This document shows positions 10,454-24,000 of a stretch of DNA of 24,000 nucleotides, one piece after another. The stretch covers positions 163 to 24,162 of the forward strand of contig CAZXXL010000020.1 in assembly GCA_964644635.1 (NCBI GenBank), read 5' to 3'. A model generated the notes under the pieces. It was given only the letters and a program-made list of their open reading frames with translations, was not told the origin of the DNA and searched no databases. A program made the translations under genes and the position numbers. Each line of letters starts with the position of its first letter. The stretch's first letter is position 1. This DNA comes from an uncultured Thermoanaerobaculia bacterium. Lineage in GTDB: Bacteria > Acidobacteriota > Thermoanaerobaculia > Thermoanaerobaculales > Sulfomarinibacteraceae.

Positions 10454-11708
10454 CGCCGGGCTCCCCTCCCTGCAGGCGGCGGACCACGACGGTCCGGATC
10501 CGCCGCTCGTCCACCTCCTCCACCGTGAACTCCAGGCCGAGACCCTCGTCCACCACCACGATCCCCTTTTCGGGTACAGTCCCGTGGCGCGAGAAGACGA
10601 GCCCGCCGACGGTGTCGACCTCGTCCTCGTCCACCTCCACGCCGAAGAGCTCGCCGAGGACCTCCAGCGGCGCGCGCCCCAGCAGGCGGTACCTGCCCGG
10701 CTCGATCTCCTGCCACTCGGGCGGCTGCCTGGGCTCGTGCTCGTCCTGGATCTCACCGACGATCTCCTCCAGGATGTCCTCCAGCGTGACGATGCCGGCC
10801 GTCCCGCCGTACTCGTCCGCCACCACCGCCATCTGCTGCTGCCGGCTCTGGAACTCCCGCAACAGCTCACCGATGTTCTTGCTCTCCGGGACCACGGGAC
10901 ATTCCAGGAGGAGCTCGGTCACCGCGGGCTCGTCGCCTCCCACCAGGTGCTCCACGATGCCCTTGACGTGGACGAGGCCCACGATGTGGTCCACCGTGTC
11001 CCGGTACACCGGGATCCGGCTCTTGTGGCTCTCGGCGAAGACCTTGACCAGCTCGGCGAAGCCGATGTCCTCGGGAACGGCGACGATCTCCGTGCGCGGG
11101 GTCATGATCTCGCGCACGGTGGTATCGAAGAAGTCCACCAGGGACTCCACGAACTCGCCCTCCTCGCCCTCGAAGATGCCGGCCGCCTCGCCGACATCCA
11201 GGAAGGCCTGGATCTCCCGCTCGCTTGCCTCTTCCTCCTCTTCGCTCGGCGGTGTCGCCGCGCCGCGCCGGTGGCGGGCGAACGTCGACAGCAGGGGGAT
11301 CACCGCCGGACGCACGAGCCTGAGGAGTGTGGCCACGGATTCCTCCCTGACCCGCGGCACCGCCATGCCCGAGACGGCGACGACGACGAGCCACGCGGCC
11401 AGCCCGACGCCGAGGGCGCGGACCGGGGACCCGCCGGGGAACCACGCCGCCACGAGCCACAGGAGCCAGATGACCACGACCTCGAGCCAGCGCACCGCGT
11501 CCACGATCCTCGACAGCGCGAACGGGGCGTCGCCGGCGATCGGCAGCAGGTCCCGGTGATCGTCCAGGAGCCCCTGGAAGCGTACGTTTCCCATCTCCGC
11601 CAGGCGGCGCAGGAGGATCTCCAGGACGGCGAGTGACACCACCAGGAACGCCCCGACCAGGCTCAGGGTCACCGGGTGGCGGAGCCAGCTTTCGATCTCC
11701 GGCCTCAT
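10443..11708 (-). CDS. CNNM/HlyC-CorC family transporter-associated protein (DUF21 TM domain + CBS pair + CorC_HlyC)
   Basis: N-terminal TM helices. CBS-pair blocks (IMTPRTEIVAVPED, RIPVYRDTVDHIVGLVHVKG). EYGGTAGIVTLEDILEEIVGEIQDEHE and a C-terminal CorC_HlyC-like domain. ATGA overlap with ybeY and an 11-nt overlap with era. Confidence 0.9.
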   Translation of the reverse strand: MRPEIESWLRHPVTLSLVGAFLVVSLAVLEILLRRLAEMGNVRFQGLLDDHRDLLPIAGDAPFALSRIVDAVRWLEVVVIWLLWLVAAWFPGGSPVRALGVGLAAWLVVVAVSGMAVPRVREESVATLLRLVRPAVIPLLSTFARHRRGAATPPSEEEEEASEREIQAFLDVGEAAGIFEGEEGEFVESLVDFFDTTVREIMTPRTEIVAVPEDIGFAELVKVFAESHKSRIPVYRDTVDHIVGLVHVKGIVEHLVGGDEPAVTELLLECPVVPESKNIGELLREFQSRQQQMAVVADEYGGTAGIVTLEDILEEIVGEIQDEHEPRQPPEWQEIEPGRYRLLGRAPLEVLGELFGVEVDEDEVDTVGGLVFSRHGTVPEKGIVVVDEGLGLEFTVEEVDERRIRTVVVRRLQGGEPGDGG

Positions 11709-12130
11709 GGCAGGAGGTCCTTTCGCAGCTCGAGCTCCAGCCGGTTCATCTCGCCGTCGTCCGTCTCGTGGTCGTAGCCGAGCAGGTGGAGCACGCCGTG
11801 CAACGCCAGCTCCTCGAGCTCCCGCAGCAGCGGGTGCTCCATCTCGACGGCCTGGGCCCTCGCCTCGTCGAGGGAGATGACGATCTCGCCGAGGAGGCGC
11901 CGCCCGTCCGGGAGCTCGTCGCCGTCCGGGAAGGAGAGCACGTCGGTCGGCCGGTCGACGTCCCGGTAGACCCGGTTGAGCTCACGGATGCGGTCCCTCC
12001 CGGTCAGCACCAGCGACACGTCGGCCGTGGACTCCCCCATCCTGTCCAGCGCCCGGACCACGACGCGCCGGAGCGCGTCAGCCACCGGCGGGCCCGGTCT
12101 GCGTTCCCAGGTGATGTGCACCCGATTCAC
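11705..12130 (-). CDS. ybeY: rRNA maturation endoribonuclease YbeY
   Basis: 141 aa with the zinc motif HGVLHLLGYDHETD and the PTDVLSFP block. The start is uncertain: ATG 12130 overlaps the upstream gene by 53 nt, and GTG 12121 is an alternative. Confidence 0.9.
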   Translation of the reverse strand: MNRVHITWERRPGPPVADALRRVVVRALDRMGESTADVSLVLTGRDRIRELNRVYRDVDRPTDVLSFPDGDELPDGRRLLGEIVISLDEARAQAVEMEHPLLRELEELALHGVLHLLGYDHETDDGEMNRLELELRKDLLP

Positions 12131-14414
12131 TCGCCTTGCGCCTCCTGTTGAAGTCGAAGCCGGGGTAGTCGATCCGGCTGTGGAACATGTTCGTCAGCAC
12201 CCACAGGAAGGACGACCCGACCTTCTCCAGCTCCTTGAAGGTGAGCTCCGATTGGTCGAGCTGGCCGTCCTCGAGGGCGTCGGTCACGATGCGCTCGATC
12301 ATGGCCCGGATCTTCCCCGGGGTGGGGTTCTCGATGGTTCGGGCCGCCGCCTCGACGGCGTCGGCGAGCAGGAGGATTCCCAGCTCCTTGGTGTGTGGCT
12401 TGGGACCCGGGTAGCGGTAGTCGCTCTCGCGGACCTCGTCCGGGTTGCGGCCCTCGGCCTCGGCCCTCTCCCGCGCCCGCGTGTAGAAGTACCGGATGAG
12501 CTTGGTGCCGTGGTGGGTGGCGATGGCCTGCCGGATGGGGAGGGGCAGGCGTTCCTTGCGCGCGATCTCCAGGCCCTCCTTGACGTGGCTCATGATGACC
12601 AGGGCGGACATGGAGGGCGCCAGGTGATCGTGCGGGTTGCCGCCGTGCTGGTTCTCCACGAAGTACTCGGGCTTCACCAGCTTGCCGACGTCGTGGTAGT
12701 AGGCCGAGACCCTGAGCAGCAGGCCGTTGGCCCCCACCGCGTCGGCGCCGGCCTCGGCCAGGTTGCCGACGGCCAGGGAGTGCTGGTAGGTGCCGGGCGC
12801 CTCCAGGGAGAGGCGCTTGAGCAGCGGCAGGTTCTGGTTCGAGAGCTCGAGCAGGCGGATGTCGGTCGTGACGCCGAAGAGCCGCTCGAAAAGCGGCAGG
12901 AAGAACGTGGCCACTCCCGCGGCCACCGGCCCGCCGGCGAAGGCGAAGGCGGTGCCGAGGACCATGGGGCCGGGACCGTCCGGGAGCCCGCGGTAGAGCT
13001 CGAGAACGAGCATGCCCGCGGCGTTGGCCGCGCCCACCATCACGCCCACGCGCGTGAGCACCGCCCGGTCCTTGAAGTGCTGGGCGGCGAACACCCCGAC
13101 GAATCCGGAGAGCAGGGCGTAAAGCCCCACCGTCAGGTCACCGCCCAGCATGAGCGCCGCCAGGATGGCCTCCGAGACCGCGAACAGCAGGGCCGGGTGG
13201 AAGCCGAGCATGAGCAGCATGACGATCGGCCCGGCGGCGTGGGGCAGGGCCCACAGGTAGCTCCCGGGCGACGACAGGAGCGAGCTCTGGCTGTTCAGCG
13301 CCACGGCGTCGGCGAGGAACACGGCCAGCCGGTCGAGCACGGTGAACACCACGGTCAGCATGAGAACCGTGGACAACTGGTACCTGCGCTCCCCGACGGC
13401 GCCGAGTCGGGCCAGCGCCTTCCACCACCCGAGGACGATCATCACGATCAGCAGGAGCGTGCCGGTGAGGGTCGTGTAGTTGACGACCCGCCGCCGGGCG
13501 CGGTTCATCTCGTGGAGAACGGCCGCCACCGCCGGAGTCACCGTGTCACCGCGGCGGATCAGGACCTGCCCGCGCTTGAAGGTCTGGAGCCTCGGGGTCA
13601 CCCTCTTGGCGGCGGCCACCCTGCGGGCGGCCGTCTCGGCGCGGTTGAAGACGAGGTCCGGCGTGATGTTCTTGACCAGGAAGCGGACCGTCGGCTTGAT
13701 CCACCGTCTCTTGACCGCGTCATGCTCCAGGAGCCGGGTCCGGATCGCCGGCTCGAGGTCCGACCGCAGGTCGATGACGTGGGCGAGGTCCTCCAGGCTC
13801 CTGCGGGTCTCGGCGCCGGTGGCCAGGCTGCGGACGGTCACGCCGGCGGTACCCCTCCTCTCGAGGTTGATGCGGTCGTCCACGACGTGGTCCGCGTACA
13901 CCTGGGTGACGACGTCCACCAGCGCCTGCTCGAGATCCGCTCCGCACTGGGCCGAGCGCAGGACCCGGACCATCGCGGCGTCCAGGCTCAGGTCCGAGCC
14001 GGCGGTCATGGTCTCGAGATTGAGCCTGCCGTGCGCCAGCTCGTCCCGGCAGACGGCGAACAGCGCCCGCAGCTGGTCGATGGTCTCCTGCCGGACCCGC
14101 GGCTCCTCGTCGTACACGGGCAGAACGGCGGCTGCGGCCTCGCGGCGCAGCTTCTCCGTCGCCGCTGGGTCCGGGATCGCCTGATCCTTGCGGACGATCA
14201 CGTCGAAGGTGGCGACGTCGCCGGGCTTCCAGTCCGGCAGCCGCCGCCCGACCCGGGGGACGACCAGCCACGTGCAGAGCAGGACGGCGATCACCGACCA
14301 CGCCAGCGGGTACTCGAGCACCCGGTCCCACCAGCCCGCACGCTCCTCCAGGCCGCGCTGGATCCGCCCGACGGGATGCTGCTCCTGCTTAGCCTTCCGG
14401 CTCTTTCGCATCAT
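12078..14414 (-). CDS. 7TM-receptor HD/HDIG-domain phosphohydrolase (PgpH/YqfF-like)
   Basis: 778 aa with an N-terminal signal-anchor and extracytoplasmic domain, then a 7-TM block. The C-terminal HD domain has YYHDVGK and ATHHGT motifs. Its position between phoH and ybeY matches the classical operon. Confidence 0.9.
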   Translation of the reverse strand: MMRKSRKAKQEQHPVGRIQRGLEERAGWWDRVLEYPLAWSVIAVLLCTWLVVPRVGRRLPDWKPGDVATFDVIVRKDQAIPDPAATEKLRREAAAAVLPVYDEEPRVRQETIDQLRALFAVCRDELAHGRLNLETMTAGSDLSLDAAMVRVLRSAQCGADLEQALVDVVTQVYADHVVDDRINLERRGTAGVTVRSLATGAETRRSLEDLAHVIDLRSDLEPAIRTRLLEHDAVKRRWIKPTVRFLVKNITPDLVFNRAETAARRVAAAKRVTPRLQTFKRGQVLIRRGDTVTPAVAAVLHEMNRARRRVVNYTTLTGTLLLIVMIVLGWWKALARLGAVGERRYQLSTVLMLTVVFTVLDRLAVFLADAVALNSQSSLLSSPGSYLWALPHAAGPIVMLLMLGFHPALLFAVSEAILAALMLGGDLTVGLYALLSGFVGVFAAQHFKDRAVLTRVGVMVGAANAAGMLVLELYRGLPDGPGPMVLGTAFAFAGGPVAAGVATFFLPLFERLFGVTTDIRLLELSNQNLPLLKRLSLEAPGTYQHSLAVGNLAEAGADAVGANGLLLRVSAYYHDVGKLVKPEYFVENQHGGNPHDHLAPSMSALVIMSHVKEGLEIARKERLPLPIRQAIATHHGTKLIRYFYTRARERAEAEGRNPDEVRESDYRYPGPKPHTKELGILLLADAVEAAARTIENPTPGKIRAMIERIVTDALEDGQLDQSELTFKELEKVGSSFLWVLTNMFHSRIDYPGFDFNRRRKASESGAHHLGTQTGPAGG

Positions 14415-15372
14415 CTCCCGCCGCGGCCTGGCGGGCCTCCCATCGCTCGTAGCGGTCGACGATCCGTTGCACCAGGCGGTGGCGGACGACGTCCTTGCGC
14501 GTGAACTCGATGAAGCCGATGCCCTCCACGCCCCGCAGGATGTTGATGGCCTCCACCAGCCCGGAGGTGCGGCCGCCCTCCAGGTCGATCTGGGTGATGT
14601 CGCCCGTGATCACCGTCTTGGAATGAAAGCCCATGCGGGTGAGGAACATCATCATCTGCTCGTGGGTCGTGTTCTGGGCCTCGTCGAGGATGATGAAGGC
14701 GTCGTTGAGCGTTCTCCCCCGCATGAACGCCAGCGGCGCGACCTCGATCACCTCCCGTTCCATCAGCTGCGACACCCGGTCGTAGCCGAGGATGTCGTAC
14801 AGGGCGTCGTAAATCGGCCTCAGGTAGGGGTTGATCTTCTCCTCGAGGTCGCCCGGGAGGAAGCCGAGACGCTCCCCGGCCTCAACCGCCGGCCGGGTGA
14901 GGACGATCCGCCGGACCTTCCTGTCGAGCAGGAACGCGGCGGCCATCGCCACCGCCAGGAAGGTCTTGCCGGTGCCCGCGGGACCGGTCGTGAACACGTA
15001 ATCGTGCTGCATCACGGCCCGGATGAAGAGCCGCTGGTTGAGGTTTCTCGGCACCACGTGCCGCTTCAGGCTGTCCGGGATGCTGGTGTCGAGGAAGAAC
15101 TCCACGAGATCGATGTCCAGGTCCTCCTCCAACACCCGGACCCCCGTCCTGAACTCCTCCTTGCCGACCTCGTACCCCGCCGCCAGCAGGCGGTCGAAGG
15201 ATTCGAGCAGGCGCACCGCGATGCGCTCGGCCTCCACCTCGCCCGAGACGACCACCTCGTTGGCCCGCGCGTTGACCTCCACCCGCAGCCTCTGCTCGAG
15301 GTAGCGGAGGTTCTCGTCGCGAACGCCGAAGAGGCGCTCCGGGTGGCGCTGGGAGAGGCTTACTTTCTGCAT
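14389..15372 (-). CDS. phoH: PhoH-family ATPase (YbeZ-like)
   Basis: I start it at ATG 15372 ([16 protein letters not shown]...). Walker A is GPAGTGKT and Walker B is IILDEAQN, with the [22 protein letters not shown] and [10 protein letters not shown] blocks. The track's longer N-terminus is shadow sequence. Confidence 0.9.
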
Positions 15373-15553
15373 CGCTGGTACGTAATGTCCACCGCCACCG
15401 GTCGGCCGGTCTCGTGACGCCCGCCGCCCCTGGCGGGCCCGTGTCCGGAGTGGGCCGGCATACTCACGGCACGAGGGTGGTTCTCGCCCGGCGGGCGCGG
15501 CCCGCCGGCGAGCCGCCGATCGTGGCGGGCGGAAGGAACGCGGACATGGGGTC

Positions 15554-15562
15554 ATTGTACCA
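15554..15562 (-). promoter_or_regulatory. candidate extended -10 promoter (TGgTACAAT) for the phoH-ybeY-era operon
   Basis: The minus strand reads cTGgTACAAT, 11-19 nt downstream of the pduO-type gene stop. This would give a GC-rich leader of about 175 nt before phoH ATG 15372. Confidence 0.35.
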
Positions 15563-15572
15563 GCCCACGGCG

Positions 15573-16136
15573 TCAGCCCCCCTCCTTCCCTGTTCCGGGC
15601 CAGGTCGTCTCCGCCATGCCGAGGCGCCGATTGAGGAGGCGGGCGAGCACGAAGAGCGCATCGGACAGGCGGTTGAGGTACCGCACGGCCTCGTCCACGC
15701 CCGGTTCCCCGGGTCCGACGGCCACCACCCGGCGCTCCGCCCGCCGGCACACGGTGCGGGCCAGGTGGGCGAGGGCGGCGGCCCGACAGCCGCCGGGGAG
15801 CACGAAGGATTTGAGCGCCGGCAGCTCACCGTCCATCTCGTCGATCCACGCTTCCAGCCGGGTGACATCGACGGCGGGAGCTCCCGCCGCCCTTCCCTCG
15901 GCGTCGGCGAGGCGGCCGCCGATCTCGAAGAGGGCTCGCTGCACGGACGCCAGGCGCTCGGGCACACCCTCCGGCAGGGGTTCGGTCGAAAGCAGCCCGA
16001 GCCACGAGCTCAGCTCGTCCACGGTGCCGTAGGCCTCGATCCTCGGGTCGGTCTTGGACACCCGGCCGCCCGAAAACAGAGAGGTCTCACCGCCGTCCCC
16101 ACTTCGCGTGTAGATCTTCACCCGGTCATGATACAT
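15573..16136 (-). CDS. PduO-type ATP:cob(I)alamin adenosyltransferase
   Basis: [14 protein letters not shown] near the N-terminus, [19 protein letters not shown] and [10 protein letters not shown] blocks typical of the PduO/MMAB family. The start may be GTG 16121 (VKIYT) rather than ATG 16136. Confidence 0.85.
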
Positions 16137-16176: not shown

Positions 16177-18108
16177 ATGGACCGCCCCCGCCGGCTCTTG
16201 CGGCGCCTCGGCGTATCGGTGGCGCTTCTCGCCGCGGGGGCCGGCGTCGTCGCGGCCCAGACGCTGGAGATCTGGCAGATCCAGGGGCCGGGAATGGCCT
16301 CCCCTTGGGCCGGCCGACGGGTCACCACCGTCGACAACCCCGTGACCGCCGTGGCCGCCACCGGCTTCTTCATCCAGACGCCCACGGCGCGGAGCGACGG
16401 CGATCCGAACACGTCGGACGGCATCTTCGTCTACCTGGGCGGGCCGCCCGCGGTGCGGACGGGAGACCTGGTGGACGTGACCGGTACCGTGGTCGAGTTC
16501 GACGGGGTCACCGAGATCGCGACCAACCCCGTGGTCACCGTGACCGCCCACGGCGCGCCCCTGCCCCCGCCCGTGGACCTCGACGCCCGCCACCCCTCTC
16601 CCAACCGGCCGCAACCGGAAACCGAGCTCGAGCGCCTGGAGGGCATGCGCGTCCGGATCGCGACGGGTACCGTCACCGGCCCCACCGACCGGCACGGGAG
16701 CTTCGCCGTCGTCGCCAGGAGCACCAGGGCCTACCGGGAGGCCGGCATCGCCTTTCCCGGCCTGCCCGGGCTGCCGGTCTGGGACGGCAACCCGGAGATC
16801 CTCGAGGTCGATCCCGACGCCCTCGGCCTCCCCGACGTCGTCGCCGCCGCCGGGTCGCCGGTTACCGGCCTCGAAGGAGTGCTCACCTTCGCCTTCGGCC
16901 GTTACCGGATCTGGCCCCAGTCGCTCACGGTCGGCGCGGTCCCGGGCCCGGGCCCCGTTCGGCCGCGCGTGGCCGGCGAGCTCACCGTCGCCACCCAGAA
17001 CCTCGAACGCTTCTTCGACGATGCCGACGACCCCGCCACCGACGACACGGTCCTCGCCCCGGCCGAGCTCGAGACCCGGCTCGCCAAGGCCTCGCTCTGG
17101 ATTAGCGACGTCCTCCGCGGGCCGGACGTTCTGGCCGTCGAGGAGGTCGAGAACCTGGCCGTGCTCCGGCGCCTCGCCGACCGCGTGGCGACGGACGACC
17201 CCGCCCTCAAGTACACCGCCTACCTCGTCGACGGCCACGATCCCTCCGGCATCGACGTCGGCTTCCTGGTGCGCCCGTCCCTCGAGGTCCTGCGCGTCGA
17301 GCAGCTGGATGCCGGTGCGACGTTCACCTTCGGCGGCTCCACCTTCCCCACCTTCGACCGTCCGCCGCTGCTCATCGAGGTGCTGCCGGCAGGCGCGGAG
17401 GGCCCCGCCCCGCTGACCCTGGTCGCGGTGCACCTGAGGTCTCTCAACGGCATCGACGACCCCGCCAAGGGTCCCTTCGTGCGTACGAAGCGGTGGCAGG
17501 AGGCCGTCGCCCTCGCCCGTGACATCCAGGCCCTCCGGGCCGCCGACCCGGCGACGAAGCTCGTCGTGCTCGGCGATTTCAACGCCTTCGGTTTCACGGA
17601 CGGCTACGTCGACGTGATGGGACAGATCACCGGCCGGCCGGACCCGCTCGGCGCCCTCCTGCCGCCCGTTCCGGGCATCGTGGCGCCGCCGCTTTCGGAT
17701 GCCGTGTCGCTCCTGCCGCCGGCCGCACGCTACACCTTCGTCAACCGGGGCATCGCGGACGATCTCGACCACGTCCTCATGTCGCCATCGCTCTTCCCCT
17801 GGGTCCGGGGTGTCGCGGCCGGCCGCGGCAACGCCGACGCCCCGGTCTCCCTCGCCGACGAGCCGGGCACCGCCCTGCGCACGGCCGATCACGACGGCCT
17901 CGTGCTCTACCTGATGACCGACGCCGACGGCGACGGCGTGCCCGACGACCGCGAGCCCTCCGGGCCCCGGCCGCCACGACGGGCCGGCGGGCGGTCGCGC
18001 GCCGTCGGCGCCGCGGACGAAAAAGTGGCCGCGGCGTCGAGGGAGGACGGTTCCGCGGCCGGGAAAAGAGTAAGGATGGAGGGTCCCGTTTCGAGCTACA
18101 TACCGTAA
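16177..18108 (+). CDS. secreted ExeM/NucH-type extracellular nuclease (N-terminal OB-like domain + endonuclease/exonuclease/phosphatase domain)
   Basis: I start it at ATG 16177, preceded by GGGGG (MDRPRRLLRRLGVSVALLAAGAGVVAAQ signal peptide). It has IWQIQG...GFFIQTP...DGD.NTSDGIFVY...GDLVDVTGTVVEFDGVTEI, the ExeM/NucH N-terminal signature. EEP blocks follow (LTVATQNLERFF, VLGDFN, DHVL, ADHDG), then a Ca-binding-like DADGDGVPDD. The last ~55 aa are low-complexity. Confidence 0.8.
   Translation: MDRPRRLLRRLGVSVALLAAGAGVVAAQTLEIWQIQGPGMASPWAGRRVTTVDNPVTAVAATGFFIQTPTARSDGDPNTSDGIFVYLGGPPAVRTGDLVDVTGTVVEFDGVTEIATNPVVTVTAHGAPLPPPVDLDARHPSPNRPQPETELERLEGMRVRIATGTVTGPTDRHGSFAVVARSTRAYREAGIAFPGLPGLPVWDGNPEILEVDPDALGLPDVVAAAGSPVTGLEGVLTFAFGRYRIWPQSLTVGAVPGPGPVRPRVAGELTVATQNLERFFDDADDPATDDTVLAPAELETRLAKASLWISDVLRGPDVLAVEEVENLAVLRRLADRVATDDPALKYTAYLVDGHDPSGIDVGFLVRPSLEVLRVEQLDAGATFTFGGSTFPTFDRPPLLIEVLPAGAEGPAPLTLVAVHLRSLNGIDDPAKGPFVRTKRWQEAVALARDIQALRAADPATKLVVLGDFNAFGFTDGYVDVMGQITGRPDPLGALLPPVPGIVAPPLSDAVSLLPPAARYTFVNRGIADDLDHVLMSPSLFPWVRGVAAGRGNADAPVSLADEPGTALRTADHDGLVLYLMTDADGDGVPDDREPSGPRPPRRAGGRSRAVGAADEKVAAASREDGSAAGKRVRMEGPVSSYIP
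18019..18060 (-). terminator. intrinsic (Rho-independent) terminator of the sigma54-driven orphan gene
   Basis: The minus strand reads GGCCGCGG-aac-CGTC-ctccctc-GACG-CCGCGGCC followed by ACTTTTTCG. That is a 12-bp GC stem with one 3-nt bulge, a 7-nt loop and a T5 tract. It begins 36 nt after stop 18096. T-runs are very rare in this DNA. Confidence 0.6.
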
Positions 18109-18695
18109 AGCGGAGCCTGCCAGTCCTGCTCCGCGGCGAACGCCGCAAGGGTGGCGTCGAGCCTTTCGTAAAGCCCGCTGATGGAGCGCTCGATCCTCTC
18201 CACGGCCTCGACCAGGGCCGGCGGCGCAACCGGCCAGCGGGCGATCTCGGGCCGGGTCAGCGGATAGACGGTCACGAGTTGAACCCCCAGGAGGTACGGT
18301 GATCCCCGGAGAGAGACCGAGCGCAGCCGTGGAAACCAGTCGAGGACGGCCAGCGGCTCGCGCGGCCGGAAACATCCGGCGAAGGTCCGGAGGCCGATCC
18401 TCCAACCCTCGCCTTCAAGCTCCGGAGCCACGCCGGTGAGAAAGCCCAGGGCGGCGCGCTGCACCTCCTGGTCGTTGTCCCCCAGGTACCCGAAGACCGG
18501 AACCGGGATCCCCAGCACGAGGAAGCGCACGTCTCCGGCGGGGAGAACCGTCGATGCGAGGCCGCGACCGGTGGTGTAGACGGTGCCCGGAAAACAGCTC
18601 ACGAGCGAGCGCCCGAGAAACAGGACCTCGGACGCGAGATCCATGGCCGGCCTCTCCGGTACCCCCGCCTCGTGCCCTTTTTCCCAAACCTCCAT
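18096..18695 (-). CDS. hypothetical cytoplasmic protein (199 aa), no family recognised
   Basis: GGTGGAGGG SD lies 4 nt before ATG 18695. The composition is natural (W/F/Y/L/E-rich rather than R/G/P shadow). No TM helix or signal peptide. It is flanked by a sigma54 promoter upstream and an intrinsic terminator downstream. Confidence 0.62.
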   Translation of the reverse strand: MEVWEKGHEAGVPERPAMDLASEVLFLGRSLVSCFPGTVYTTGRGLASTVLPAGDVRFLVLGIPVPVFGYLGDNDQEVQRAALGFLTGVAPELEGEGWRIGLRTFAGCFRPREPLAVLDWFPRLRSVSLRGSPYLLGVQLVTVYPLTRPEIARWPVAPPALVEAVERIERSISGLYERLDATLAAFAAEQDWQAPLYGM

Positions 18696-18728: not shown

Positions 18729-18746
18729 TAGCAAGGCGCGTGCCAG
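18729..18746 (-). promoter_or_regulatory. sigma54 (RpoN) -24/-12 promoter, CTGGCACgcgccTTGCTA
   Basis: The minus strand reads TGGCAC-N5-TTGC, an exact match to the canonical consensus. The predicted TSS is about 18719, roughly 24 nt upstream of ATG 18695. It lies immediately downstream of a sigma54 enhancer-binding-protein gene. Confidence 0.75.
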
Positions 18747-18879: not shown

Positions 18880-20682
18880 TCACAGGCCGAGCCTGCGCAT
18901 CTTCTTGAAGAGCCCGGCGCGGCTGAGGCCCAGCCTGGCGGCGGCGGCGGTCCGGTTGCCGCCACACTCGGCGAGGCAGGCCTCGATCAGCCGGCGTTCG
19001 AACACGTCCCGCGCCTCGGCGAGGGACATCCCGGCGAAGACCGCCGGGTCCACGCCGGCGGTGGGGTGGCCTTGGGGGTCGGCCTCCCCCCCCAGCGAAA
19101 GGTGCCGCACGTCGATGATCGCCCCCGGCGTCACCGCCGCGACGGCCCGGATGATCTCGCTCTTCAGCTCGCGGACGTTGCCCGGCCAGTCGTGACCCTG
19201 GAGGCGTTCCAGGGCGCGGACGGTCACCCCGTTGATCGGCTTGTGCATCCTCGTCGCCGCTTCCTCCAGGAACGCGCTCACCAGGACCGGGATGTCCGGC
19301 CGGCGCTCGCGCAGGGGAGGCACGTGGATGCGCAGAACGTGCAGCCGGTAATACAGGTCGGCGCGGAAGCGGCCGGCGTCGACCTCCGCCTTGAGATCGC
19401 GGTTGGTCGCCGAGACGATGCGCACGTCGCAGCGGATCGGCGTGTCCTCGCCGACCCTGTAGAGCTCACCCTGCTCGAGCACCCGGAGCAGCTTGCCCTG
19501 CAGGGGCAACGGCAGGTCCCCGACCTCGTCGAGGAGGAGGGTGCCCCCCTCGGCCGCCTGGAACCTGCCCCGCCGCGGCTGGACGCCGGTCGCCGCCCCC
19601 GGCGCCACGCCGAAGAGCTCGGCCTCGATGAGCTCCGCCGGAATGGCCGCACAGTTCACCGCCACGAACGGCCCGCCGGATCGCGGCGAGAGCTCATGGA
19701 TCGCCCGGGCGAAGAGCTCCTTGCCGGTACCGCTCTCACCCGTGATCAGGACCGGCTCTTCCTGGGCGGCGAAGCGCTCCGCCAGCTGCTTGCAGCCGGT
19801 GATGGCGGCGGAGCTGCCAAGGATGGCGTCCAGCGCGGCGGCGCCGCCGGTCCCCGGCCGGTGGGGGCCCCCGGGGCGCTGAGGACGGCCCCTGCCCAGC
19901 GCGTTGAGGACGATGCGGACCGCCGCCGCCACCGCGCAGATGTCACCGGTGGCCGGCCTTTCCTCCCCGCACCGCAGCAGCAGCTCGTGCTCCCGGTTCA
20001 CGCGGGCCACGAGCAGGGGCCGACCTGCGACCGACGTCTCGCGTACGGTCTCGCCGCCGGCCGCGGCCAGGGCCTCGTCGGCGCCGGCGAGGCCGGCTCC
20101 GATGCTCCCCAGGTCGAGGTCGCCGGAGGCGGCCACCAGGGACAGACCGCCCCGGCCGCCGGAGTGGACGACGGCGGCCGCGGTGAAGTGAAACTTCTCC
20201 ACGACCCAGCGGAGCAGGTCCGCCACCGAGACCCGCTCGGCGCACGCCGCGCTCATCTCCAGAAGCGCCACCATGTCCTCGATGTCGGCCACGGCCCGGA
20301 AGTGGGCGGTTCCCTCGCTCCCCGTCCCTTGCTCGGCCGCCGGAGCCGTCGGGCGGATCTCCGGCGCCAGGGCGAATGTCCCCGAGGAGACCTCCACGAT
20401 GGTGAGCCGCGCCGACGAGAGCATGATCTCGTCCCCGGGGCGAAGCTCTGCGGAGTTGACCGACACGCCGTTGACGAACGTCCCGTTCTTGCTGTTGAGA
20501 TCGGTGACGTGGAAGCGGCCGTGATCGGCGCGGAGCACCGCGTGGTTGCGGGAGACGTCCTTCTGGGGGATCACGATGTCGTTGCCGCTGCGCGAACCGA
20601 GCCGGTACGTCCGGCCGGCCTTGAGCTCGAACCGTTGCTCCCCAAGTTCCGGATGGTCGTAGATGAGCAGGTACCGACCCAT
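18880..20682 (-). CDS. sigma54-interaction-domain transcriptional regulator with N-terminal FHA domain, central GAF-like domain and C-terminal Fis-type HTH
   Basis: FHA blocks (YRLGSRSGNDIVI, VSRNHAVL, DLNSKNGTFVNG). AAA+ sigma54 domain (LITGESGTGKELFARAIH, GGTLLLDEVGDL, VRIVSATNRDL, FRADLYYRL, WPGNVRELKSEI). HTH (GNRTAAAARLGLSRAGLFKKMRRLGL). The GAFTGA loop reads GAATGV. Confidence 0.9.
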   Translation of the reverse strand: MGRYLLIYDHPELGEQRFELKAGRTYRLGSRSGNDIVIPQKDVSRNHAVLRADHGRFHVTDLNSKNGTFVNGVSVNSAELRPGDEIMLSSARLTIVEVSSGTFALAPEIRPTAPAAEQGTGSEGTAHFRAVADIEDMVALLEMSAACAERVSVADLLRWVVEKFHFTAAAVVHSGGRGGLSLVAASGDLDLGSIGAGLAGADEALAAAGGETVRETSVAGRPLLVARVNREHELLLRCGEERPATGDICAVAAAVRIVLNALGRGRPQRPGGPHRPGTGGAAALDAILGSSAAITGCKQLAERFAAQEEPVLITGESGTGKELFARAIHELSPRSGGPFVAVNCAAIPAELIEAELFGVAPGAATGVQPRRGRFQAAEGGTLLLDEVGDLPLPLQGKLLRVLEQGELYRVGEDTPIRCDVRIVSATNRDLKAEVDAGRFRADLYYRLHVLRIHVPPLRERRPDIPVLVSAFLEEAATRMHKPINGVTVRALERLQGHDWPGNVRELKSEIIRAVAAVTPGAIIDVRHLSLGGEADPQGHPTAGVDPAVFAGMSLAEARDVFERRLIEACLAECGGNRTAAAARLGLSRAGLFKKMRRLGL

Positions 20683-20715: not shown

Positions 20716-21867
20716 CTACGAGCCCAAGGCTGCCCTCACCATGTCGGCCGTGATCGTGACCCTGTAGGCGCCGTCTCCCATCTCCTCGAGATGCTCGCTG
20801 TGCCAGGGATCGAACTCCAGGGGATTGACGATGCGGCCGAAGATCGCGCGGAGGGCACGGGCCCCGGTGCGGGTATGCTTGGCGGCTTCTTCCGCGATCA
20901 GCGCGGCCGCGAGATCCTCGATCTCGAGCGAGATGTTCATGACCTCGAAGTACCGTCGCGAGCGGACGAACGGCGAATCCAGGGACTCGAGCAGGATCGC
21001 CTTCAGGACGTCTCCACCCAGGTCCTTGAGCATGACGATGTTGTCGAACCGGGCCAGGAACTGGGGGACCATCCCGTACTCGAACAGGTCTTCGTCCTTG
21101 AGGAAGTCCGCGAGTGCGAACCGGGTCTCGATCCGTACCGTCCCGTCCGCGGAACGGATGGCCTGGCTCTTGAGCTTCTCGCCGCTGCCGGGCTTGATGA
21201 CGCGCAGGTACACCTGGTCGTAAAGCCCTTCGAAGGCCCCGCCGCAGATGAACATCATCCGCCCGGTGTCCACGTCCAGCGTCACCTGCTGCTCCTCGCC
21301 GTCGACCACGGCGAAGGTCCGGTAGGCGACCTTCTCGCCCTCCATCAGGGTGAGCAGCCCCTGCTGGAGCACGACGCCGATGGCGTTCGGCTTGCCGGCC
21401 ACCACCGCCGCCATCTTGTCGATCTCGTCGATACAGATCGTGGCCCGTTCCATGGCGGCCGTGAGCTCCTCGGCCGTGGCCCTGGGACCGAGTAGGGCGC
21501 GGGCGCGCTGCTCGGCGGCGGTGAGCAGGCGGTCCGGCCGGAACTCCATCCGGTCCGAGTCCACCAGGAGGTTGGCGTTGACGATGGTCATGGCCCGGAA
21601 GGGGCGGTACTCCGGAATGTCGTGGTACAGCCGCCCGATGTTGTTCATGATCGTCGTCTTGCCGGTGCCGGAGCTGCCGATGAGCAGGATGTTGCCGGGC
21701 ACCTTCCCGGTCACGTGCTTGTACACGGCCACCGCGACGTAACGCAGGGCCGCGTCCTGGCCGAGCACCCCCCGTTTCAGCTCCACGAAGATCTCCGCCG
21801 GCGTGATCGCGGCGAGCTCGCGGGGCCGGCCCCCGCCGGCCGCCGCGCCGCCTTCCCCAACCGTCAT
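20716..21867 (-). CDS. ClpX-family AAA+ ATPase lacking the zinc-binding domain, GYVG pore loop, RKH loop and IGF ClpP-docking loop
   Basis: Block-by-block similarity to ClpX: ITPAEIFVELKRGVLGQDAALRYVAVAVYKH, NILLIGSSGTGKT (Walker A), ICIDEIDK (Walker B), VLQQGLLTLMEG, MFICGGAFEGL (sensor 1), GMVPQFLARF, TGARALRAIF (sensor 2). AAGGAGG SD lies 6 nt before ATG 21867. Confidence 0.85.
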   Translation of the reverse strand: MTVGEGGAAAGGGRPRELAAITPAEIFVELKRGVLGQDAALRYVAVAVYKHVTGKVPGNILLIGSSGTGKTTIMNNIGRLYHDIPEYRPFRAMTIVNANLLVDSDRMEFRPDRLLTAAEQRARALLGPRATAEELTAAMERATICIDEIDKMAAVVAGKPNAIGVVLQQGLLTLMEGEKVAYRTFAVVDGEEQQVTLDVDTGRMMFICGGAFEGLYDQVYLRVIKPGSGEKLKSQAIRSADGTVRIETRFALADFLKDEDLFEYGMVPQFLARFDNIVMLKDLGGDVLKAILLESLDSPFVRSRRYFEVMNISLEIEDLAAALIAEEAAKHTRTGARALRAIFGRIVNPLEFDPWHSEHLEEMGDGAYRVTITADMVRAALGS

Positions 21868-21868
21868 C

Positions 21869-23065
21869 TCATGCCTCCTTGACCCAGACCCCGCCGCGGG
21901 GCACCAGCCGCACGCCGTCGATGTGCACGGACCGCCCGCAGCCCCCGGGCCGGAAATCGGTCACGATGTCCACGTGCTGGGCCGACCTGTTCAGGCTCCG
22001 CGCCTTCTCGAGCTCGGCGATCTTCGCCCTGCCGGCCTCCGAGGCCGGATCCTCGACGTAGCACTCTTCGTAGCTGGCGCCGATGGCGATGTGCAGCGTG
22101 CCGCCAACCTTCTCCACGAAGAGCGGATGCCTGAGCACCCGGTCGAGGCCGGGGTTCATCCCCAGGGCGACCTCGCCGAGCCGGTGGGATCCCTCGTCGG
22201 TCTCGACGATGGTCTCGAGGTATTCCTGGCCGGTCTCTGCCGAGTAGCCGACGATCCGCCCGCCCTCGAACCGGAGATGGATCCCCTGGATGTCGTGCCC
22301 GCCGTAGTTCACCGGCAGGTCCACGAAGATCTCGCCCTCCACCGAGCGCGCATCGGGGCTGGTGAAGACCTCCCCGTCCGGGAAGTTGCGCAGGCCGTAG
22401 GAGAGCACGGCCCGGCTCGGCGACAGGTCCATCCTCAGCTCGAGCCGCCTGCCGTCCCGGGGATCCTCGGTGACGATGACGATCTCCCGCCCGGCGTCGA
22501 AGAGCGGCGCGATCCTCTCCTCCGCCTCCTTCAACGGCGCCGGGTCCTGGGTCGACGCCCGCACGATGAAGGCGGCGTACTCCTCGACGTCCATCCCCTC
22601 CATGGCGGCCGCCGCGGGGGTGGGGAACAGCGTGATGACCCACGGCTTGCCGAGGCGGATGTCGGCGAACGGCCGGTCGGCCGCGGCCAGCCGCTGGGCC
22701 TGCTCCGCCTCCAGGCCGGAAGTGAGGGCCGGGTCCTCGGCGCCCAGGACCTCGACGTACTTGGTCATGCTCCGGTAACGCTCGCCGTGCCACTCGGGGA
22801 TCCGCTCCAGCTGCTCCGGGCTGCCCCAGCGGCCCATGGCGGCCGACCAGACCCGGCCGCGCTCGTTGTTGGGCGGGATCAGGTAGACGTCGGGGACCGC
22901 CCCGGCCTGGATCACCCGCCTTTCCAGGACCGCCATCAGCGGCCACGCGATCCTCTCGCCCTTGATCATCACCCGGTCCCCGGGCTCGATCCCGCCCAGG
23001 GAATGGTCGAGAAGGTATCCGGCCCAGGTCTCCAGGTCCTGTGCATCGATCGTGATCTCCTGCAT
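21869..23065 (-). CDS. M29-family aminopeptidase (AmpS/AmpT/PepS-like)
   Basis: 398 aa with the family metal-ligand blocks NFPDGEVFTSP, RLGEVALGMN, GTLHIAIG and SAQHVDIV. Confidence 0.88.
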   Translation of the reverse strand: MQEITIDAQDLETWAGYLLDHSLGGIEPGDRVMIKGERIAWPLMAVLERRVIQAGAVPDVYLIPPNNERGRVWSAAMGRWGSPEQLERIPEWHGERYRSMTKYVEVLGAEDPALTSGLEAEQAQRLAAADRPFADIRLGKPWVITLFPTPAAAAMEGMDVEEYAAFIVRASTQDPAPLKEAEERIAPLFDAGREIVIVTEDPRDGRRLELRMDLSPSRAVLSYGLRNFPDGEVFTSPDARSVEGEIFVDLPVNYGGHDIQGIHLRFEGGRIVGYSAETGQEYLETIVETDEGSHRLGEVALGMNPGLDRVLRHPLFVEKVGGTLHIAIGASYEECYVEDPASEAGRAKIAELEKARSLNRSAQHVDIVTDFRPGGCGRSVHIDGVRLVPRGGVWVKEA

Positions 23066-23082: not shown

Positions 23083-24000
23083 CTACGGCTTCTTGGCGTT
23101 CACGTCCGCGCCCGCCGGCTTGCCGGGAGCCTTCTCCCGGGACAGCCGGAGGGTGCGGGGTATCCTGCCCCGGCCCGACCGCGTCCGGCGGACGACGATG
23201 ACCGGAACGCTCACCGTCGGGCGCGACGGATCGTCCGTCCGGATCGTCACCGTCGCCCGCAGCGACCCCCAGTGCGCCGCCGCGGCCCTGGCGTTGTCGA
23301 GGGTGACGCGGAGGTCGTGGGTGACCGCGGCGGCGGCGGAGCCGGCCGTCACGCCGATCAGGTCCGGATGGTCGCTGACGGCGCTCAGGATCCGGAAGGG
23401 CTTTCGCCCGCCGTGCGTGAGGCGGAGGATGCGCCACACCTCCTTGCCGCCCTGGTTGGGCAACACGAAGCGGATCCGGGGGGGCGCCGGCTCGATCAGC
23501 GGCCGGATGCGGAGGGAGACCGGAATGTCGAGCTTCGCCCGGCCCGGTACGTTGGTTCGCAGCGCCAGCGAGCCGGAACGCACCACCGGCTGCGCGTCGC
23601 CGGGAATCTCCGCGATCAGCCACAGGTCGCCGGGAACGGCGTGTACGCCCCGGATGGACGTCGCCTTCGTCACCGCGGCGAAGCGCACCCGCAGGGGCGC
23701 CGGCACCGACTCGACCTCGAGCACCCTGAGCGGCCTGCCGTCCCTCCGGTGGAGCAACAGCCGCGACCAGACGCCGCGGCCCTCCTGTGTCGTCAGCCAG
23801 ATCCGCTGGGAGGGCGTCATCACGATCGGCGCCTCCACCTTCGCGGTCAGGCGCAGCATCACGGTGCGCAGCCCGGGATCGTCCGTGAAGACCCGAATGG
23901 TCTTCGAGATGCGTCCGTTCTGCCGGGGCGACGTGTGGACCTTCGCGACGAGCTTTCCCGACCCACCTGCCGGGATGACCGAGTCGTGCTCGGCCACCGT
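23083..24000 (-). CDS. DUF1573-like, multi-Ig-fold protein (5'-truncated by the window edge)
   Basis: The frame stays open to position 24000. The first visible segment (IPAGGSGKLVAKVHTSP...ISKTIRVFTDDPGLRTVMLRLTAKV) matches the C-terminal half of a DUF1573 unit. Two more beta-rich repeats end in ...TIRTDDPSRPTVSVPVIV. The C-terminal tail is basic. Confidence 0.65.
   Translation of the reverse strand, partial: TVAEHDSVIPAGGSGKLVAKVHTSPRQNGRISKTIRVFTDDPGLRTVMLRLTAKVEAPIVMTPSQRIWLTTQEGRGVWSRLLLHRRDGRPLRVLEVESVPAPLRVRFAAVTKATSIRGVHAVPGDLWLIAEIPGDAQPVVRSGSLALRTNVPGRAKLDIPVSLRIRPLIEPAPPRIRFVLPNQGGKEVWRILRLTHGGRKPFRILSAVSDHPDLIGVTAGSAAAAVTHDLRVTLDNARAAAAHWGSLRATVTIRTDDPSRPTVSVPVIVVRRTRSGRGRIPRTLRLSREKAPGKPAGADVNAKKP

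Follow-up and report, generated by a model that had tools for sequence, protein, structure and literature searches.

The 24,000-nt stretch of DNA analyzed here (the window), which derives from an uncultured bacterium of soil or sediment type, probably a member of the Acidobacteriota, encodes, next to each other on the minus strand, an M29 (clan MQ) metallo-aminopeptidase of 398 amino acids (positions 21869..23065), identified by Pfam, its catalytic residues, and AF2/Foldseek, and a ClpX-derived AAA+ ATPase of 383 amino acids (20716..21867), identified by NCBIfam, PDB and Foldseek comparisons and by the family alignment A1. All further features given with coordinates below are likewise on the minus strand. 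At the gene junction (21865..21871), the M29 stop codon TGA (21871-21869) is separated from the ATPase start codon ATG (21867-21865) by the single base 21868, and the sequence reads ...GTC AAG GAG GCA TGA g ATG. A Shine-Dalgarno-like AAGGAGG (21874..21880) is situated within the last M29 codons, 6 nt before the ATPase ATG. Both the 1-nt spacing and the placement of this motif inside the M29 codons had been claimed in a sequence-only reading of this DNA and were confirmed at these coordinates.

Starting 33 nt past the ATPase stop codon, and probably the last gene of the M29-ATPase transcription unit, a gene for a 600-residue enhancer-binding protein (EBP; 18880..20682) was identified by its Pfam domains, namely, FHA, sigma-54-interaction AAA+, and HTH_8. 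It is followed by a gene for a 199-residue protein without a Pfam or NCBIfam family match (18096..18695), which is preceded, at a distance of 36 nt, by a perfect sigma-54 promoter consensus, TGGCACGCGCCTTGCT (18730..18745, 0 mismatches). In the related loci L007, L008, and L010, this promoter is kept at the same distance with 1 mismatch, and homologs of the 199-residue protein come after the EBP. This gene is likely a sigma-54-dependent target of the adjacent EBP. Control of the M29-ATPase pair itself by sigma-54 was considered and rejected, as no good promoter was found upstream of the pair within the window and the sole one fronts the 199-residue protein gene. On the other side, the M29 start is preceded at a distance of 17 nt by the 3' part of a DUF1573-like/OS_HP2 (seleno)protein-type gene (23083..24000; NCBIfam NF041425, E 1e-8), which starts outside the window; a longer copy in the related locus L005 carries an in-frame TGA in an S-[U/C]-G-C-T motif. 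The remaining window holds ordinary chromosomal genes (PhoH-PgpH-YbeY-CorC, Lnt, M61, and MgtC). In this housekeeping context, and with a best PADLOC match of the ATPase at E 4e-4 over 56 residues and none of the M29 protein, a role in antiphage defense was dismissed. An Rfam search at gathering thresholds found no regulatory RNA near the pair.

The M29 protein matches Pfam PF02073 with 167.7 bits (gathering cut-off, 27), and its catalytic and ligand residues E232, E298, H325, Y332, H364, and D366 are all present, aligning to AmpS E253, E319, H348, Y355, H381, and D383. In the alignment A2 of M29 proteins, five of these six residues are invariant and Y332 is nearly so. The AF2 model (pLDDT 80.8, pTM 0.80) resembles PepS (4ICS), AmpS (1ZJC), and AmpT (2AYI) with TM scores of 0.66-0.72 over both domains and ~440 alignment columns. 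The subfamily is nevertheless divergent, with 21-24% identity to these three enzymes, and no NCBIfam model matches the protein. Its N-domain contains a conserved PPNN[DE]RG[RK]VW loop, where AF2 confidence is low. The earlier claim of an intact M29 gene thus holds, given the full length, the complete set of six active-site residues, and the predicted two-domain fold.

Residues of the ATPase were placed by residue mapping and by aligning the protein with HMMER to the ClpX proteins of E. coli and Neisseria (8e91 and 6vfs). This located Walker A, GSSGTGKT (residues 64-71; 21655..21678), Walker B, TICIDEID, with D147 and E148 (residues 143-150; 21418..21441), the arginine-finger segment LARFD with R273 (residues 271-275; 21043..21057), and the sensor-2 motif GARALR with R337/R340 (residues 335-340; 20848..20865), in agreement with the core ClpX blocks that had been recognized by eye. 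The top NCBIfam match is ClpX with 135 bits, compared to 54 bits for HslU; however, the protein remains below the ClpX equivalog cut-offs (135 versus 359 bits for NF003745 and 99.3 versus 370.75 bits for TIGR00382), and no specific NCBIfam or PADLOC model was found for it. In a PDB sequence search the best matches were all ClpX (E 2e-27), and so were the top 50 Foldseek hits of the AF2 model, which is of moderate quality (pLDDT 67.5). The ATPase is therefore ClpX-derived, with ClpX as its nearest relative by both sequence and fold, and no characterized non-ClpX family fits it. It nevertheless stands outside canonical ClpX and every other characterized family.

In ClpX, the GYVG, RKH, and IGF loops together with the zinc-binding domain define substrate grip and ClpP docking. 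The zinc-binding domain is absent from the ATPase: its residue 20 is paired with ClpX residue ~63, and the open reading frame uses the earliest start codon that follows an in-frame stop, leaving no space for a C4 domain. Neither was a Cys cluster found in the protein, nor a C..C...C..C pattern in any family representative. The pore-1-loop equivalent NANLLVDSDRMEF (residues 97-109; 21541..21579), in which N97-D103, E108, and F109 are invariant, places A-N-L-L-V (98-102) opposite ClpX A-G-Y-V-G, so that NLLV stands in place of GYVG, with the invariant Phe F109 located 7 residues past NLLV. The pore-2-loop equivalent KMAAVVAGKPNAIGVVLQQ (residues 151-169; 21361..21417), placed by alignment, is nearly invariant and 4 residues shorter than that of ClpX. 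A beta-hairpin (residues 179-200; 21268..21333), modeled by AF2 as strands 179-188 and 191-200 with a block pLDDT of 93-94, presents an acidic tip, D189-G190-E191-E192, whose D-G-E (189-191) is opposite ClpX R-K-H; this tip is kept in most 60-81% clades of the family, with D/N-G at the first two positions. In the IGF-loop equivalent PGSGEKLKS (residues 226-234; 21166..21192), S-G-E-K-L (228-232) aligns to ClpX S-G-I-G-F, with EKL in place of IGF. The patterns G[YFW]xG and [ILMV]GF each occurred in 0 of 10 family representatives. A known peptidase-docking element, either an IGF-type loop or a C-terminal tail motif, was not found in the ATPase, whose C-terminus is variable in alignment A1. Hence, the absence of the C4 N-domain, GYVG, RKH, and IGF, noted before from the letters of the sequence, is upheld throughout by the ClpX alignment.

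Since the substitute motifs are invariant or nearly so across the family, the ClpX loops are exchanged, not degraded. Leucine at the position of the aromatic pore-1 residue, combined with a short pore-2 loop, argues against efficient polypeptide threading, and a simple unfold-and-hand-over mode of action may therefore be the wrong picture. The exchange of all four ClpX-specific interaction elements for strongly conserved motifs suggests that the motor grips or binds another ligand and has a docking partner other than ClpP.

We searched a representative library of 1.84 billion proteins, clustered at 50% identity, for relatives of the ATPase and obtained only 56 clusters at E values of <=1e-30. 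All of the about 10 full-length family representatives are without GYVG, IGF, RKH, and the zinc-binding domain, whereas lower-scoring ClpX representatives mostly possess them, and a score gap extends from >200 bits down to <=117 bits. Mean column identity in alignment A1 is 79%, and identity across orders amounts to 65-81%. These observations establish a real, discrete, and previously undescribed ClpX-derived family. Its members come mostly from Acidobacteriota metagenome-assembled genomes (MAGs), and labels from outside this phylum belong to MAG bins showing the same wider synteny as the Acidobacteriota loci. JGI names routinely misannotate members as "ClpX", so that ClpX is overcounted in Acidobacteriota and related MAGs. 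One fusion was found, P0122, in which the ATPase is combined with a xylose-isomerase-like TIM barrel; no natural M29-ATPase fusion appeared among the hundreds of homologs listed, and no clpP (CLP_protease gene) was listed in the window or in the annotated related loci.

Adjacency of the two genes extends well beyond the source genome. M29 adjoins the ATPase gene in 15 of 20 clade-1 ATPase loci, the ATPase gene is directly downstream in 75 of 92 M29 loci (81%), and it adjoins all three M29 homologs that were picked independently of the ATPase. Of the 21 junctions measured in related loci, 14 have a spacing of -4 nt (ATGA overlap), +1 nt, or +2 nt; GGAGG-like strings occur at the same place, and the pair is kept while both flanks differ between loci. 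Matched stoichiometry, which the sequence-only reading derived from co-translation, and physical contact between the two proteins would be possible consequences of such translational coupling. None of the papers in the library searched describes a pairing of a ClpX-like ATPase with an M29 enzyme, consistent with the earlier remark that no described case was known to its author. The pairing proposed in the sequence-only reading is thus supported as a conserved adjacency with tight junctions, but not as a general property of the ATPase family, and M29 genes also occur unlinked. No M29 gene neighbors the ATPase gene in the 60-69% clade, the 45-48% clade, or distant members, although the loops of these M29-less groups are exchanged in the same way or in a form typical of the family; we therefore discarded the idea that the loops are specific for the M29 partner. 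Conversely, 17 of 92 loci with M29 proteins of the same subfamily are without the ATPase. These unlinked proteins keep 168 of the 170 columns conserved in linked ones, and the 2 broken in both unlinked clades compare to 1 in the reverse control, so that partner-specific constraint in M29 was rejected as well. From these comparisons, pairing with M29 appears to be neither intrinsic to the ATPase family nor obligate, and the coupling is best described as facultative and lineage-specific. The shared gene order could largely reflect inheritance within one phylum.

Other peptidase genes lie near some family members. A Zincin_1 gene is found upstream of the ATPase gene in two or three clade-2 loci, and in clade 3 a secreted HExxH protein of ~670 amino acids with a signal peptide is encoded downstream. 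We do not regard these as signs of a general ATPase-peptidase theme, as the clade-2 and clade-3 neighbors seem to reflect local synteny and no peptidase gene adjoins the distant members P0131 and P0126.

We favor, with a probability of roughly 45%, the explanation that a motor working without ClpP forms a lineage-specific operon with M29 and that both products act facultatively coupled in the same proteolytic pathway. In the Acidobacteriota-centered clade to which the window belongs, the ATPase gene would have become the distal operon partner of the M29 gene, which lies just upstream, is predicted to encode an active di-metal aminopeptidase, and appears to be translationally coupled to the ATPase gene; FHA-domain regulators, in the window the FHA-sigma-54 EBP, are encoded further downstream. 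The ATPase most probably retains catalytic activity as an AAA+ motor and works independently of ClpP. It might engage, hold, or partly unfold polypeptides, whose freed N-termini the M29 dimer might then trim. The gene structure, the exchanged motifs with their conservation, the boundaries of the family, and the conserved adjacency with its limits are observed, while we infer hexamer formation, ATPase activity, ClpP independence, co-translation, and a joint pathway. If so, the locus hints at a new ATP-driven peptide-trimming partnership.

It is tempting to go one step further and assume an obligate machine that would be an ATP-dependent aminopeptidase: docked on the M29 dimer, the ClpX-like ring would drive or gate the entry of polypeptide N-termini into the cavity inside the dimer. 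The tight, frequently overlapping gene junctions, the 81% linkage seen from the M29 side, and the self-compartmentalizing nature of M29 would agree with this. The loop at the IGF position could have been repurposed for docking, as its length is retained and it is highly conserved, and the charge reversal from RKH to DGE would fit positively charged N-termini over C-terminal tags. However, ATPase clades without M29 conserve the loops equally well, unlinked M29 proteins show no relaxation of conserved positions, hundreds of homologs include no M29-ATPase fusion, and the aromatic pore-1 residue is missing. A ring of six on a dimer would also face a symmetry mismatch, with no known docking motif to bridge it and a variable ATPase C-terminus. 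We therefore consider such a machine unlikely, and the physical complex it implies, with DGE hairpins binding positive N-termini, the EKL loop docking, and processive trimming, is improbable to the same degree. A milder relation between the two proteins would make the ATPase a dedicated activase or maturation chaperone of M29, responsible for metal loading or release of inhibition, modeled on mitochondrial ClpX, which activates ALAS, and on MoxR-type ATPases, which mature metalloenzymes. Putative co-translation with a di-metal enzyme, the predicted ClpP independence, and noncanonical pore loops suited to limited remodeling over processive unfolding are in line with this idea. Yet characterized M29 enzymes are active without an ATPase, unlinked M29 proteins of the same subfamily keep their conserved residues unchanged, and an M29 gene is missing from the neighborhood of most ATPase family members; we rate the idea of a dedicated activase lowest of all.

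The partner of the ATPase might also be sought on the other side. A gene for a protein of ~225 amino acids, without Pfam, NCBIfam, or PDB sequence match, is found downstream of the ATPase gene in 15 of 20 clade-1 loci, and an FHA-domain protein is likewise encoded downstream in 11 of 20. Since they are linked about as often as M29 (15 of 20), M29 is not the sole candidate, and either the ~225-residue protein or the FHA proteins could be the true partner or client. The ATPase would then serve the downstream signaling genes, i.e., those for the ~225-residue protein, FHA-domain regulators or the sigma-54 EBP, and Ser/Thr kinases, with M29 as a co-expressed housekeeping neighbor; its task could, for instance, be to remodel a regulatory complex that depends on phosphorylation. 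The M29-less clade-1 loci L001 and L008 indeed keep the order ATPase/225-aa/FHA, a Ser/Thr kinase gene lies directly 3' in several loci, and in the window the EBP gene follows closely. Nevertheless, we find this explanation rather doubtful, as neither the window nor L010, its closest relative, contains the ~225-residue protein gene, FHA linkage is limited to clade 1, and the ATPase gene is joined less tightly to the genes downstream than to the M29 gene. Moreover, no regulatory loop is evident, because the conserved sigma-54 promoter serves the gene after the EBP and not the M29-ATPase pair. Finally, the two genes may have no joint function at all, the synteny being inherited in one lineage and the ATPase being a decaying ClpX paralog. 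Dominance of the distribution by one phylum and the occurrence of both genes apart from each other would be expected in this case. The ATPase is not decaying, though, considering the very strong purifying selection that includes the replaced loops (79% mean column identity), and both the persistence of the pair while its flanks change and the overlapping stop/start junctions typical of selected operons make a merely inherited neighborhood very unlikely.

Whichever partner applies, the family retains the ClpX motor while every interaction element is swapped for invariant motifs, which points to other uses of the ClpX chassis. To our knowledge, the AAA+ proteases known from bacteria all combine the ATPase with an endopeptidase chamber, which raises the question of whether an ATP-dependent exopeptidase exists. 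A conserved, often overlapping operon with a self-compartmentalizing exopeptidase makes this hypothesis directly testable. If true, an ATPase/M29 complex would mark the first use of an exopeptidase in an AAA+ machine and also the first such machine in clan MQ, and a ring that feeds M29 obligately would represent a new class of AAA+ protease.

The M29 protein shares with AmpS (1ZJC), PepS (4ICQ), and AmpT (2AYI) the two-domain fold and the six catalytic and ligand residues common to M29. Characterized M29 enzymes work without any ATPase, and we know of no ATPase partner for them. A precedent for a stand-alone motor acting on an enzyme is provided by mitochondrial ClpX and yeast Mcx1, which activate ALAS by ClpP-independent, ClpX-type remodeling. 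Unlike the family described here, these proteins keep canonical pore loops; we know of no link between them and an aminopeptidase, and the match of human mitochondrial ClpX to the ATPase is confined to residues 139-349 of the latter (E 2e-16). HslU (ClpY), the sister lineage of ClpX, gives just a weak N-terminal match (PDB E 8e-8; 54 bits versus a cut-off of 362, with residues 21-81 aligned) and contains an I-domain, which is absent from the ATPase, and the lack of GYVG is a further mismatch to HslU. Myxococcus xanthus ClpX3 (MXAN_2743) is reported as an extra ClpX paralog without the N-terminal domain and RKH motif, encoded away from clpP and dispensable, with a heat-sensitive deletion mutant and 43.5% identity to E. 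coli ClpX (PMC11423568). Going by its published description, ClpX3 is far closer to ClpX than our family is, and no M. xanthus protein was found among the close homologs of a Myxococcaceae-binned family member; on these grounds we set aside the identification of the family with ClpX3, which is probably not a member. As for ClpX itself, whose partner gene is clpP, no such neighbor was seen and an M29 gene lies upstream of the ATPase gene instead. With 24-27% identity to ClpX (e.g., that of E. coli, PDB 8E91/6WRF), the ATPase has the same AAA+ large and small domains and the same motif order, including the N-terminal helix LGQ..A...V.VAVY.H.

The 383-aa ATPase (20716..21867, minus strand) belongs to a discrete, strongly constrained family of ClpX-derived ATPases, which is real and previously undescribed. 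Its gene follows that of the 398-aa M29 aminopeptidase (21869..23065, minus strand) at the junction GTC AAG GAG GCA TGA g ATG, where a single nucleotide separates stop and start and AAGGAGG (21880-21874, minus strand) lies 6 nt before the ATPase ATG. The sequence-only reading, which had described a ClpX-like ATPase without zinc domain, GYVG, RKH, and IGF, encoded 1 nt after an intact M29 gene, was confirmed in every particular.

Pfam detected generic AAA domains and a weak Clp D2-small lid in the ATPase and nothing else. The top NCBIfam model was ClpX, with 135 bits versus an equivalog cutoff of 359, and the HslU score of 54 bits was limited to the first 60 residues. The best sequence matches among solved structures were all ClpX (E 2e-27 to 1e-14), with HslU and ClpB far behind, and the top 50 Foldseek hits of the AF2 model, which is of moderate quality (pLDDT 67.5, pTM 0.53), were exclusively ClpX chains (22-28% identity). 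Alignment to E. coli ClpX located Walker A (GSSGTGKT, residues 64-71), Walker B (TICIDEID, residues 143-150), the arginine finger (LARFD, residues 271-275), and sensor 2 (GARALR, residues 335-340), and we infer that the protein is active and oligomeric. It is derived from ClpX, yet it cannot be a canonical ClpX. Residue 20 aligns with ClpX residue ~63, and the zinc-binding domain is not encoded in the gene; A-N-L-L-V replaces A-G-Y-V-G of the E. coli protein, D-G-E replaces R-K-H at the tip of a confidently modeled beta-hairpin (residues 179-200), S-G-E-K-L replaces S-G-I-G-F, and the pore-2 loop has four residues fewer.

In an alignment of 20 family members with 70-81% identity (mean column identity, 79%), the residues N97-A-N-L-L-V-D103, E108-F109, V156-A-G-K-P-N161, G164-V-V-L-Q-Q-G-L-L-T-L-M-E-G-E178, P226, S228-G-E230, and K233-S234 were invariant or nearly so. 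Sequences aligned from 84 loci carried identical replaced motifs throughout the range of 60-81% identity, and remoter clades possess related yet distinct versions, such as NANTLATEE-GAVD and PKSGIKLPTTT. The channel-facing and bottom-face loops were thus replaced rather than lost, and this strong conservation argues that they are functional in a new form. Leu-Leu-Val occupies the position of ClpX Tyr-Val-Gly, with an invariant Phe seven residues further on, and the pore loop is thus possibly hydrophobic, albeit noncanonical. This qualifies the earlier claim that threading elements are lacking. The charge reversal from RKH to DGE is suggestive, and it is tempting to speculate that N-terminal instead of C-terminal tags might be recognized. 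Since an IGF-type loop is absent and no clpP was found in any annotated related locus, the ATPase probably works without ClpP.

A complete HMMER search of 1.84 billion cluster representatives retrieved just 56 clusters with E <= 1e-30, of which many were fragmentary. Ten full-length family representatives scored roughly 200-609 bits, and the next full-length proteins did not exceed 117 bits. A motif census found G[YFW]xG, [ILMV]GF, the C4 N-domain, and [RK]KH in none of the ten; GYVG, IGF, and a zinc domain are present in most proteins with lower scores, which are therefore true ClpX. The family is abundant in an index of 5.8 billion proteins, the best 120 matches all being at least 70% identical. 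Among the matches listed, NCBI names these proteins "AAA family ATPase" and JGI/IMG "ATP-dependent Clp protease ATP-binding subunit ClpX"; the latter name is given to members without any ClpX-specific element. Named carriers among the matches listed are all metagenome-assembled genomes, with none from cultured organisms, and overwhelmingly Acidobacteriota (Thermoanaerobaculia, Holophagae). Some bins are labeled Myxococcota, Desulfovibrionaceae/Desulfohalobiaceae, Methylomirabilota, or "Chondromyces"; the Methylomirabilota and "Chondromyces" bins share the wider Acidobacteriota-type synteny, so binning may be unreliable. One family protein, P0122 (716 aa), has a short, Cys-rich N-terminal extension, CYDCNKPLEQCDC, and a C-terminal xylose-isomerase-like TIM barrel (AP_endonuc_2), either fused or miscalled as fused.

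The M29 protein scored 167.7 bits with Pfam M29, matched no NCBIfam model, and shares 21-24% identity with AmpS, PepS, and AmpT. Its AF2 model (pLDDT 80.8, pTM 0.80) superimposes on these enzymes over both domains with TM scores of 0.66-0.72, and the six catalytic or ligand residues (E232, E298, H325, Y332, H364, and D366) are fully or almost fully conserved among 20 homologs. NicX, a dioxygenase of the M29 fold, matched less well (TM 0.5), which leaves the peptidase assignment intact. Controlled substrate access to M29 is conceivable. The N-domain loop PPNN[DE]RG[RK]VW (residues 65-74) is conserved more highly than any other stretch of the subfamily and, as the sole segment with pLDDT < 50, is apparently flexible; it is found in unlinked M29s too.

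The adjacency of the two genes is conserved outside this genome. In a survey of 80 genome loci, M29 lies directly upstream of the ATPase in 15 of the 20 clade-1 loci (ATPases at least ~70% identical to that of the window) with enough flank. M29 is missing at all 24 loci of the 60-69% identity clade except one borderline case and at 23/23 loci of the 45-48% clade; members farther removed are either orphan genes or flanked by different genes. Approached from the other side, all three M29 homologs picked without reference to the ATPase had it as the next gene, and when metagenome contigs were scanned without bias and combined with the genome loci, it came directly after M29 in 75 of 92 assessable genes. 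The 17 unlinked M29 genes belong to two groups of the neighbor-joining tree, which implies few gain or loss events. At 14 of 21 distinct loci the junction distance is -4 (ATGA), +1, or +2 nt, and at the remaining 7 it is 57-135 nt; GGAGG-like strings recur in the final M29 codons of related loci. What these surveys show is a lineage-specific operon, long conserved, that includes an intact M29 and, judged from the junctions, is predicted to be usually translationally coupled.

The window has a G+C content of ~70% throughout, matches no Rfam family, and has no sign of a mobile element or defense island. The other genes are housekeeping genes (Old-Yellow-Enzyme-type flavin oxidoreductase, Lnt, MgtC/DUF4010 protein), including the classic PhoH/7TM-HD (PgpH-like)/YbeY/CorC block (10443-15750, minus strand); a second aminopeptidase, an M61 glycyl aminopeptidase with C-terminal PDZ domain (5284-7098, plus strand), is located 15 kb from the pair. 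A further gene, present with its 3' part alone (23083..24000, minus strand) and ending 17 nt upstream of the M29 start, is probably a selenoprotein gene. It matches NCBIfam NF041425, "OS_HP2 family (seleno)protein" (E 1e-8), and a longer copy of the contig (L005, 2171-3328) has the frame RILRAAPS-TGA-GCTVAEHDS, with the in-frame TGA at the position of the first Cys in an S-C-G-C-T motif of the DUF1573 type. A 9-bp hairpin begins 12 nt past the UGA, its folding energy not being significant (z -1.3), and gene callers divide the gene into open reading frames (ORFs) of 77 and 304 aa.

Downstream, 33 nt after the ATPase stop, begins the gene of a 600-aa enhancer-binding protein with FHA, sigma-54-interaction AAA+, and HTH_8 domains (18880..20682, minus strand), followed after a 184-nt gap by a 199-aa ORF of no assigned family (18096..18695, minus strand). 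A perfect sigma-54 promoter consensus, TGGCACGCGCCTTGCT (18730-18745, minus strand), is situated directly after the former and 36 nt upstream of the latter. Homologs of the 199-aa gene at L007, L008, and L010 are preceded, at 33-36 nt, by a -24/-12 element with one mismatch, and this conservation makes the 199-aa gene the likely conserved target of the enhancer-binding protein. At L002, L004, L011, L016, L019, L025, L056, and L088, though not in the window, Peptidase_S66 (LD-carboxypeptidase-like), a cNMP-binding and FHA protein, and RecG recur as a block a few kilobases 3' of the ATPase, in some cases with a Ser/Thr kinase carrying PD40/tricorn-like repeats immediately 3' of it. In the paralogous 45-48% clade (L061-L086), the usual next gene encodes a ~670-aa protein with signal peptide and HExxH motif (AIHELGHNVEQ) that matches neither Pfam nor NCBIfam; upstream, the opposite strand carries a UvrD-like helicase gene. 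At a few loci of the 65-69% clade, the ATPase is preceded by a Zincin_1 mini-metallopeptidase and followed by an ankyrin-repeat protein.

We favor, with a probability of about 45%, a facultative functional partnership in which the ATPase would act on polypeptides, or on one specific client, by binding or remodeling, and M29 would trim exposed N-termini; both presumably act in one pathway. The partnership envisaged in the sequence-only reading is partly supported: the operon is conserved, but there are clades without M29, and constraint is not altered in the unlinked M29 proteins. What ties the two together mechanistically is gene order alone, and each can do without the other. An obligate holoenzyme, compatible with the close junctions, is therefore improbable: the special loops of the ATPase are equally conserved in clades without M29 and in linked clades, and of 170 M29 columns with a conservation of at least 95% in linked genes, only 2 were broken in both unlinked groups (reverse control, 1), so that no interface-like constraint was detectable. 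Among the homologs listed, no M29-ATPase fusion was seen, the TIM barrel protein P0122 being the sole ATPase fusion. Least probable is a role of the ATPase as dedicated M29 activase.

Neutral synteny is very unlikely: the flanks vary both upstream (AMP-binding enzyme, short-chain dehydrogenase, ADH/DHDPS, or a transglutaminase-TPR/DUF1573 set) and downstream (225-aa protein, FHA protein, or Ser/Thr kinase with PD40/tricorn repeats), and M29-ATPase is thus the most stable adjacency of the neighborhood. Also unlikely, though less so, is that the ATPase primarily serves an FHA/kinase/225-aa module, with M29 as a merely coexpressed neighbor. A ~225-aa protein without match in Pfam, NCBIfam, or PDB sequences is encoded between the ATPase and an FHA-domain gene in 15/20 clade-1 loci (for instance, L007, 9236-9910; L089, 8403-9089; L088, 8500-9183; L001, 9196-9864), and hence as often as M29, and this order is kept at L001 and L008, both lacking M29. 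An FHA-domain protein is found downstream in 11/20 clade-1 loci. On the other hand, neither the window nor L010, its closest relative, has the 225-aa gene.

The ATPase family is not only real but also strange in a well-defined manner, and it is experimentally tractable. A conserved operon of such an ATPase with an exopeptidase has not been described previously, and the literature searched contained no description of a ClpX-like ATPase linked with M29 or of an ATP-dependent aminopeptidase. ClpP-independent action of ClpX has a precedent in mitochondrial ClpX/Mcx1. The nearest described analog is Myxococcus xanthus ClpX3, which lacks the N-domain and RKH and whose mutant is heat-sensitive (PMC11423568). 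As ClpX3 is reported to share 43.5% identity with E. coli ClpX (PMC11423568) and no M. xanthus protein was among the close homologs of a Myxococcaceae-binned family member, we regard it as an analog of the ATPase rather than a member of its family.
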